From the NCBI GenBank assembly GCA_048886185.1, contig JBHLKY010000008.1:90001-122000 (forward strand): a DNA stretch of 32,000 bases, given 5' to 3'. Shown here piece after piece: positions 112 through 21,003 of this stretch. The first letter of the stretch is position 1. Each line of letters begins with the position of its first letter. The translations under genes and the position numbers were made by a program. The notes below the pieces were generated by a model. That model had not been told where the DNA came from. It saw only the letters and a program-made list of their open reading frames with translations, and did no database searches. The stretch is from Candidatus Hermodarchaeota archaeon. GTDB taxonomy: Archaea > Asgardarchaeota > Heimdallarchaeia > Hodarchaeales > Hodarchaeaceae.

Positions 112-390
112 TTAAAGTGTTATCCTTAACGGGGTTTTTATTTCATTTACAATATTTGCTTTATCGATTGCTTTAGCAATATCTTCATCTTTCGCTCCAC
201 GTTTTATTGAGACACTGAGATCTAATGTGCGAAGATGTTTGATATTGCACCTACGTCGTTTTACTGGAGAAATTCCAGCACCTGAAATGAGAGCGAAATT
301 TTGGTCAACTAAATCTACAATAACTGCTTTCATTAGCGCCTCGCGACCAGCAGTCTTAACGATGACTCTACCAACTTCTATCGCGGCCAT
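112..390 (-). CDS. rpl14e: 50S ribosomal protein eL14
   Basis: MAAIEVGRVIVKTAGREA...VIVDLVDQNFALISG...VKRRRCNIKHL is the typical L14e KOW-fold signature. Confidence 0.95.
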   Translation of the reverse strand: MAAIEVGRVIVKTAGREALMKAVIVDLVDQNFALISGAGISPVKRRRCNIKHLRTLDLSVSIKRGAKDEDIAKAIDKANIVNEIKTPLRITL

Positions 391-747
391 CTTTGATTCC
401 TTCTATAAATATCGCATCTTTGTTGAGACTTGTATATAATCAAGCAAAAATCACTTGAAGAAGTGTGCATGAACGGAATAATGCAAATATTTCTGCTTCT
501 ATTCGTTTGTAGCCTTTTTAAACAATGCCTCAAATAAGTTCCCTCGCGCGCCAACATTCAAAGAGATGACCTCACATTCATTTTCAAAAAATGTTTGATA
601 TAGCCAAAATCATTCTTCAATCCCATGAGGCTACCAAGAAAAGAATAAAAACCTTGAAATTTAATTTCATTAAATCTCCGCCATACTTTTACCCATACAA
701 ATTTCACACCGCTAAAGTTAAAACCATAAGTGGAAGTAACTAATCAG

Positions 748-884
748 GCCGCTGTGGCTTAGTTGGTAGAGCGACAGACTCGTAAGGTGATTCTCTATCT
801 AGAGAGAAACCCAAGAAATCTGTTGGCCGTGGGTTCAAGATATAAGTTCCTAATGGATCGTATATGAAATTCCCACCAGCGGCT
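748..884 (+). tRNA. tRNA-Thr(CGT) with two introns (785..817 at position 37/38; 840..870 at position 59/60)
   Basis: Acceptor GCCGCTG/CAGCGGC plus discriminator T; D-arm GCTT..GAGC; anticodon stem ACAGA/TCTGT around CT-CGT-A|A; T-stem GTGGG/CCCAC with loop TTCAAG|T. Removing 33 + 31 nt leaves a 73-nt cloverleaf, and both junctions form BHB-type motifs. Confidence 0.93.
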
Positions 885-980
885 TTTATAGTTCAAATGA
901 TTTTGTTAAATAAAAATCCAAAAACCTTTTTGGATAAACATTACAATGGGTTTTCTAAGGACAATAAACTTTGGATAAAA

Positions 981-20926: not shown

Positions 20927-21003
20927 GGGCCGGTGGTCTAGCTCGGTATGACGGCTGCCTCACACGCAGCAAATCACTAGTTCAAATCTGGTCCGGCCCA
21001 CCA
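20927..21003 (+). tRNA. tRNA-Val(CAC), intron-less, CCA encoded
   Basis: Acceptor GGGCCGG/CCGGCCC-A-CCA; anticodon arm GCTGC-CT-CAC-AC-GCAGC; T-arm ACTAG-TTCAAAT-CTGGT. Confidence 0.95.

Follow-up and report, generated by a model that had tools for sequence, protein, structure and literature searches.

A tRNA-Thr(CGU) gene predicted to carry two spliced introns, one of them in the T-loop, in a Hodarchaeales archaeon

A three-exon tRNA-Thr(CGU) gene

The window analyzed here is a 32,000-nt stretch of a Hodarchaeales genome assembly (4.84 Mb, 35% G+C, 96% complete). Positions 748 to 884 of its forward strand hold the three exons of a tRNA-Thr(CGU) (748-784, 818-839 and 871-884; 37, 22 and 14 nt), separated by inserts of 33 and 31 nt. 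Exon 1 (tRNA nt 1-37), which is identical in most sister genomes, carries the 5' strand of the acceptor stem (GCCGCTG), U8, the D-arm, the anticodon stem ACAGA and the loop CTCGTA, with the anticodon CGT at 781-783 and A37 at its end. Exon 2 (nt 38-59) begins with A38 and continues through the 3' strand of the anticodon stem (TCTGT), the variable loop TGGCC and the T-stem GTGGG to the first six nucleotides of the T-loop (nt 54-59, TTCAAG). Exon 3 (nt 60-73) supplies T60 (U60), the 3' strands of the T-stem (CCCAC) and acceptor stem (CAGCGGC), and the discriminator U73 at 884; the CCA end is not encoded.

Deleting both introns in silico produced a perfect cloverleaf, and deleting intron 2 alone was enough for ARAGORN to call a tRNA-Thr(cgt) with a 33-nt intron at 37/38. 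The joined exons carry U8, A14, G18-G19, U33, G53, T54-T55-C56, A58, C61 and U73, and once the introns are out the 7-bp acceptor stem, the D, anticodon and T arms and the universal nucleotides of a tRNA are all present. The first-pass annotation had described this gene as a tRNA-Thr(CGT) with two introns and a 73-nt spliced product; its coordinates, intron lengths and intron positions agree to the base with the sequence and with in-silico splicing, and the joined exons have exactly that length and are folded by ARAGORN as tRNA-Thr(cgt). The unspliced gene received no call from ARAGORN in default mode or from Rfam at the gathering threshold, and a sensitive Rfam scan returned a truncated tRNA (RF00005) match of 15.9 bits, against a threshold of 29 bits.

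Upstream, an A/T-rich, BRE/TATA-like element (TAAAGTTAAAA, 713..723, forward strand) lies 25-35 nt before the mature 5' end. The surrounding motif CCGCTARAGTTAAA (window 703-727) is found at the same distance in the tRNA-Thr(CGU) genes of the window genome (G000) and of four relatives (G003, G007, G008 and G019), and by the usual layout of archaeal promoters it is probably a BRE/TATA promoter. Directly 3' of the gene, a forward-strand T-run (885..887; TTTT counting U73) is likely to serve as an archaeal transcription stop, and about 8 of 20 tRNA-Thr(CGU) orthologues likewise run on into Ts. Weak Rfam matches at 886-920 (CRISPR-DR5 and a plastid atpF intron, E 3.7-4.8) were set aside as noise. 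The locus is syntenic, with a 92-aa ORF and a family-2 glycosyltransferase as its flanks.

Both introns lie in bulge-helix-bulge motifs

In an archaeal bulge-helix-bulge (BHB) motif, each strand consists of an outer helix, a 4-nt central helix, a 3-nt bulge and a further outer helix, and cleavage takes place after the second bulge nucleotide. Intron 2 (31 nt, 840..870, forward strand, at 59/60) conforms to the strict hBHBh' form. Its bulges are AG|A (838-840) and AT|T (869-871), its central helix of TTCA (834-837) and TGAA (865-868) pairs at four of four positions, and its outer helix is the T-stem itself (GTGGG 829-833 with CCCAC 872-876), while the inner helix (TATA 841-844 with TATA 861-864) leads into a 10-position hairpin (841-850/855-864) with two mismatches. 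The strict BHB earlier claimed for this intron is present in every part (TTCA/TGAA, AG|A, AT|T, TATA/TATA), and the intron was also found by a strict BHB scan combined with ARAGORN.

Intron 1 (33 nt, 785..817, forward strand, at 37/38), which had been described as a hairpin intron, is likewise present and adopts BHB geometry with a single C.A mismatch. Its bulges span 783-785 (T-A|A) and 816-818 (A-A|A), and its central helix, CTCG (779-782) with CAAG (812-815), forms three of four pairs, C34 standing opposite an A. The anticodon stem provides the outer part, followed inward by a GGT/ACC helix (786-788/809-811) and a 6-bp hairpin (791-796/803-808). The mismatched position is paired in 10 of 18 relatives, several of which have four perfect central pairs. 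For both introns, cuts after the second bulge nucleotide would restore a mature tRNA with a 7-nt T-loop and a 7-nt anticodon loop.

The whole precursor was more stable than all 200 shuffled sequences (z = -3.8). Its minimum-free-energy fold at 37 C keeps all of the outer helices and has no pairing in the A/U-rich central helix of intron 2, and the BHB conformation lies above the optimum by 1.8 kcal/mol in the T-arm and by 3.7 kcal/mol in the anticodon arm. A BHB conformation somewhat above the energy optimum is usual, and the enzyme is thought to stabilize such motifs by clamping them.

Sister genomes fix the junctions and conserve the exons

A DNA search of 40 relatives showed that each of the 21 other genomes of the genus has the tRNA-Thr(CGU) gene. 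Both introns are present in five genomes (G000, G010, G014, G017 and G019), intron 1 only in 12, intron 2 only in three (G012, G015 and G021) and neither in one (G011). In every allele that lacks an intron, the exons join exactly at the junction predicted from the BHB motif: this holds for intron 1 in G015, G021, G012 and G011 and for intron 2 in 12 sister genes. Because natural "spliced" alleles thus exist in sister genomes, both junctions are fixed. The intron-free G011 allele scores 74 bits on the Rfam tRNA model (threshold 29 bits), and an intron-free tRNA-Thr(UGU) gene, with nt 34 as its sole difference from the predicted product, scores 76.3 bits.

Across 21 orthologues, mean pairwise identity was 96.5% over the 73 exon positions, compared with 52% for intron 1 and 66% for intron 2, and among the few exon positions that vary are the pairs 3:70 and 50:64, whose changes compensate each other. 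As judged from this alignment, the exons are under purifying selection as an RNA gene. The intron structures are also maintained. In 19 aligned T-arms, 92% of cells pair within the intron 2 structure and nine pairs change on both sides; in its hairpin, 8 of 10 pairs have changed on both sides. None of 500 shuffles reached the observed values, and sliding the register lowered pairing to 33-55%. In 18 aligned anticodon arms, 91% of cells pair within the intron 1 structure, and all three pairs of the inner helix covary.

One genome of the genus is unusual at the syntenic locus. In G021 (L026; C130:1-1732, tRNA part 172-232, reverse strand), an intron-free 5' part of tRNA-Thr(CGU) (nt 1-61) lies beside a homologue of the 92-aa ORF, and right after T-loop nt 60/61 the sequence diverges into unrelated, G+C-richer DNA that runs to the contig end. 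The same bin contains a second tRNA-Thr(CGU) gene, with intron 2, on another contig. The divergence may reflect a long intron, other DNA inserted into the gene, a contig end that is chimeric, or a bin of mixed origin.

Splicing enzymes and a proposed pathway

The window's contig, outside the window itself, encodes two paralogues of the splicing endonuclease EndA, each with the N- and C-terminal EndA domains (PF02778 and PF01974): an alpha subunit of 206 aa (46687-47307) and a beta subunit of 212 aa (79557-80195). For the alpha subunit, the best match is the catalytic chain of the Aeropyrum pernix (alpha-beta)2 enzyme (3P1Z_B, E 2.9e-41), and alignment to A. pernix EndA gives the catalytic triad Y144, H152 and K183 (ORF numbering), with H152 opposite the position occupied by Ala in the 3AJV variant chain. 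A crenarchaeal-type loop (L1/CSL) is present as well: the gapless alignment of segment GKPVGIRKPKSPRFDRPLEL with the A. pernix loop puts K63 at the Lys44 position. The beta subunit, which has the Tyr and no His at the catalytic position, most resembles the structural units of the enzymes from ARMAN-2, M. kandleri and N. equitans. For the EndA of this genome, the nearest relatives come from Hodarchaeota, Hodarchaeum mangrovi and Heimdallarchaeota. The genome also encodes RtcB (E 5e-160).

In A. pernix EndA, the specificity loop and its Lys44 give the enzyme a broad substrate range (Hirata et al. 2011, PMC3241643), and a two-subunit architecture with a crenarchaeal-type loop has been reported for Asgard archaea (Kaneta 2018, PMC5829648). 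By homology and from the latter report, we infer that EndA here is an (alpha-beta)2 heterotetramer with a broad substrate range. An examination of subunit architecture had been proposed as a check on the gene, and it yielded an alpha subunit with the triad and the crenarchaeal-type loop and a beta subunit that lacks the catalytic His.

We propose that transcription yields a precursor of about 137 nt, whose anticodon arm and T-arm would each form an independent BHB motif. In both motifs, the (alpha-beta)2 EndA would then cut the two 3-nt bulges behind their second nucleotide, and RtcB would ligate the exons of 37, 22 and 14 nt into the 73-nt tRNA. CCA would be added last, a step included because CCA is not encoded. 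That the precursor is cut and joined in the cell, and in this order, is our reading of the sequence and of the enzymes encoded in the genome.

A canonical BHB is a substrate that every archaeal EndA should cut, whatever its position. The strict hBHBh' of intron 2 is for this reason not evidence of a permissive enzyme, and the earlier suggestion of a permissive splicing machinery is only partly borne out: the EndA architecture and the mismatch in intron 1 speak for it, and the strict T-loop motif does not. The background to that suggestion, that multiple and non-canonical introns go with broad-specificity EndA, does hold (Kaneta 2018, PMC5829648), and a matching enzyme is encoded in the genome. 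We do not follow the further step of taking the intron as independent support for a permuted 5S model; what it shows is that this organism, like the whole lineage, makes heavy use of BHB processing.

We put at about 0.93 the probability that window 748-884 is a functional and apparently the sole tRNA-Thr(CGU) gene of this genome, with two introns that would be spliced by EndA. A decaying or silent pseudogene, with inserts that are tolerated junk and ACG codons read by tRNA-Thr(UGU), would be in keeping with a gene invisible to default ARAGORN and Rfam, and wobble could in principle let a UGU anticodon read ACG. Such a history is very improbable, however, for a gene present in all 21 genomes of the genus examined, whose exons are 96.5% identical over 21 genomes (introns, 52-66%) and change in compensatory fashion, whose inserts both keep BHB geometry in covarying helices, and whose promoter-like motif and T-run are kept. 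It is exceedingly improbable that the inserts are removed or tolerated without EndA, whether by self-splicing or in trans, or that the T-loop insert stays in the mature RNA. Both inserts are exactly in BHB geometry, and the cuts restore a canonical 7-nt T-loop and anticodon loop. Group I and group II introns are far larger than 31-33 nt, no match to either was returned by the Rfam scan, and 31 nt left uncut would destroy the interaction between the T-loop and D-loop.

T-loop introns are common in the genus

We scanned for T-loop introns with a pattern of T-stem plus TTCRAN, an insert, and N plus the complementary stem, with BHB pairing, which was tightened after a looser version proved noisy. 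The window genome contains at least 10 convincing 59/60 introns of 29-32 nt: three in Thr genes, two in Glu genes, and one each in Gly(CCC), Ser(CGA) and three other genes. Beyond the Thr genes, these lie on contig C3 (47236-47266, 58943-58973, 59181-59211, 64073-64103, 85622-85653 and 148259-148288) and on the window's contig, C8 (168237-168265); the seven belong to the two Glu genes, Ser(CGA), Gly(CCC) and three untyped genes, and each has GAAA-N as its last nucleotides, ahead of TCCC. This common 3' end, TGAAA-N|TCCC, arises because it must pair with the invariant T-loop TTCA.

A search with the sequence signature GGGTTCAAR-N23-29-GAAANTCCC gave 10 matches in the window genome and 3-9 in each of 21 congeners. 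Outside the genus, 61 other genomes of the class had 0-4 matches, one genus represented by 25 genomes had none, and a reversed control pattern matched nothing in any genome scanned. By these counts, the 59/60 T-loop intron is a lineage-typical class, a "fixed habit" of the genus. The special status implied for the T-loop intron by the first-pass annotation accordingly falls away, as it is one of at least 10 in its own genome.

The two tRNA-Glu genes (introns at C3:47236-47266 and C3:59181-59211) share with tRNA-Thr(CGU) the 59/60 position, the length class and the 3' end GAAAA|TCCC, and, like the Thr(CGU) and Thr(UGU) genes, they are paralogous isoacceptor genes with a 59/60 intron in common. 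The pairs differ in that the two Glu introns (31 nt) are almost identical, whereas the Thr introns match at 24 of 31 positions, and in that tRNA-Thr(CGU) additionally has a 37/38 intron.

For a genome-wide census, 294,645 strict BHB candidates were spliced in silico, singly and in pairs, and passed to ARAGORN. This recovered the window gene, Thr(UGU), Gly(CCC), Ser(CGA) and a few others, and missed relaxed motifs as well as genes interrupted by at least three introns; it also gave many spurious calls, because the intron mode of ARAGORN is permissive. That mode alone listed 32 tRNAs in the genome and Rfam 28, several of them mis-typed (three as "Pyl"), and an anticodon-loop intron interrupts most of the listed tRNAs. 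Extra introns hide at least a third of the tRNA set expected for this genome. Two other genes were seen in passing. A tRNA-Pro(UGG)-like sequence with a D-loop insert of about 31 nt (C14:68893-69000, forward strand) scores 28.2 bits on Rfam, just below the threshold. Within the window, an intron-free tRNA-Val(CAC) at 20927-21003 (forward strand) scores 60 bits and is among the few uninterrupted tRNA genes here.

Other threonine tRNA genes

ARAGORN in intron mode and Rfam listed no Thr gene of any type genome-wide. A BLAST search with the mature sequence matched only the window gene and a tRNA-Thr(UGU) gene, and neither this search nor ARAGORN in intron mode nor Rfam found a second tRNA-Thr(CGU) gene in the 96%-complete assembly. 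An intact tRNA-Thr(CGT) elsewhere had been named as the case that would speak against the gene in the window; no such copy turned up in the assembly, though one could still lie in the missing 4%.

The tRNA-Thr(UGU) gene (L057; C14:61692-61795, reverse strand) lacks an intron at 37/38 and carries one of 31 nt at 59/60. Its exons differ from those of tRNA-Thr(CGU) at 2 of 73 positions, and the 59/60 introns of the two genes are homologous (24 of 31 positions identical). This homology is seen only through the flanking exons; blastn-short searches with either intron of the window gene found no further copies in the genome. A 186-nt Thr(GGU)-like gene (L058; C8:20822-21007, reverse strand, outside the window) carries a 32-nt intron at 59/60 along with D-loop and anticodon-loop inserts. 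The boundaries of its D-loop insert were ambiguous in a brute-force search, and its 59/60 intron alone was placed precisely. All three Thr isoacceptor genes of the genome therefore carry a T-loop intron.

Compatible with our model of the gene is the tentative proposal, which we hold at somewhat below even odds, that intron 2 of the window gene did not descend vertically in this gene and was instead copied from tRNA-Thr(UGU), its near-identical counterpart, when the 3' half underwent gene conversion. The two genes have nearly the same exons and homologous 59/60 introns, and the introns nearest to that of the window gene are the Thr(UGU) introns of G007, G008 and G009 (26 of 31 positions), rather than other Thr(CGU) introns. 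Those same three genomes have the intron 1 most like that of the window gene, yet lack intron 2 in tRNA-Thr(CGU), and a TAGGAAA signature at the 3' end, common to the Thr(CGU) introns of G010, G014 and G017, is missing from that of the window gene. On the other hand, the tree of the neighboring glycosyltransferase gene has an unresolved backbone, so that repeated loss of an ancestral intron 2 fits about as well; 31 nt under structural constraint hold little phylogenetic signal; and the two genes of this genome differ at position 47, so that any tract must begin 3' of it. The genus is polymorphic for both introns of the Thr(CGU)/Thr(UGU) pair, with every combination of presence and absence represented; that intron 2 of the window gene was recently copied from tRNA-Thr(UGU) by conversion strikes us as rather unlikely on the sequences compared.

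Discussion

Heavily interrupted tRNA genes have already been published for Asgard archaea: 92-95% of the tRNA genes of Atabeyarchaeia and Freyarchaeia bear introns, which are often non-canonical and multiple (Valentin-Alvarado et al. 2024, PMC11291895). The window genome resembles these published cases in having several BHB introns per gene, often at non-canonical positions, and two EndA paralogues, consistent with an (alpha-beta)2 enzyme; it differs in belonging to a Hodarchaeales genus of Heimdallarchaeia, outside the published focal families. The tRNA-Thr(CGU) gene adds another case to this record, one that is not rare in its own genome. A recent survey found almost no intron families common to different tRNA types (Goswami et al. 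2026, bioRxiv 10.64898/2026.10.13.758758), whereas here a 59/60 intron is common to two Thr isoacceptor genes, although the two genes are near-identical.

Multi-intron tRNAs and non-standard Thr introns have also long been known in Crenarchaeota (PMC3241643 for A. pernix). They include Thermoproteales, and A. pernix, like the window genome, has Thr isoacceptor genes with standard and non-standard introns (PMC3241643). The A. pernix enzyme, APE-EndA, is an (alpha-beta)2 enzyme with the Lys44 loop, and the alpha subunit of the window genome is closest to it and keeps the Lys. In A. pernix, however, the non-standard Thr intron lies in the D-loop of tRNA-Thr(UGU), and tRNA-Thr(CGU) has a standard intron only. 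Unlike A. pernix, the organism studied here is a mesophile-type Asgard archaeon with 35% G+C.

The case leaves knowledge of the splicing mechanism unchanged and bears on annotation and on intron evolution. As run here, ARAGORN and Rfam miss the gene and list about 28-32 tRNAs, so that tRNA-Thr(CGU) would be reported as missing from this genome. Hodarchaeales is the group usually placed closest to eukaryotes, and the set of multi-intron Asgard tRNA genes is now extended to one of its genera. How tRNA introns spread between genes has been named as an open problem (Goswami et al. 2026, bioRxiv 10.64898/2026.10.13.758758). If intron 2 was indeed copied from tRNA-Thr(UGU), this would be a specific route, open to dating, along which tRNA introns of Asgard archaea move from gene to gene, and the genus would offer a natural system for measuring rates of intron gain and loss. 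The polymorphism in intron presence and absence among these close relatives is itself raw material on how tRNA introns are gained and lost.
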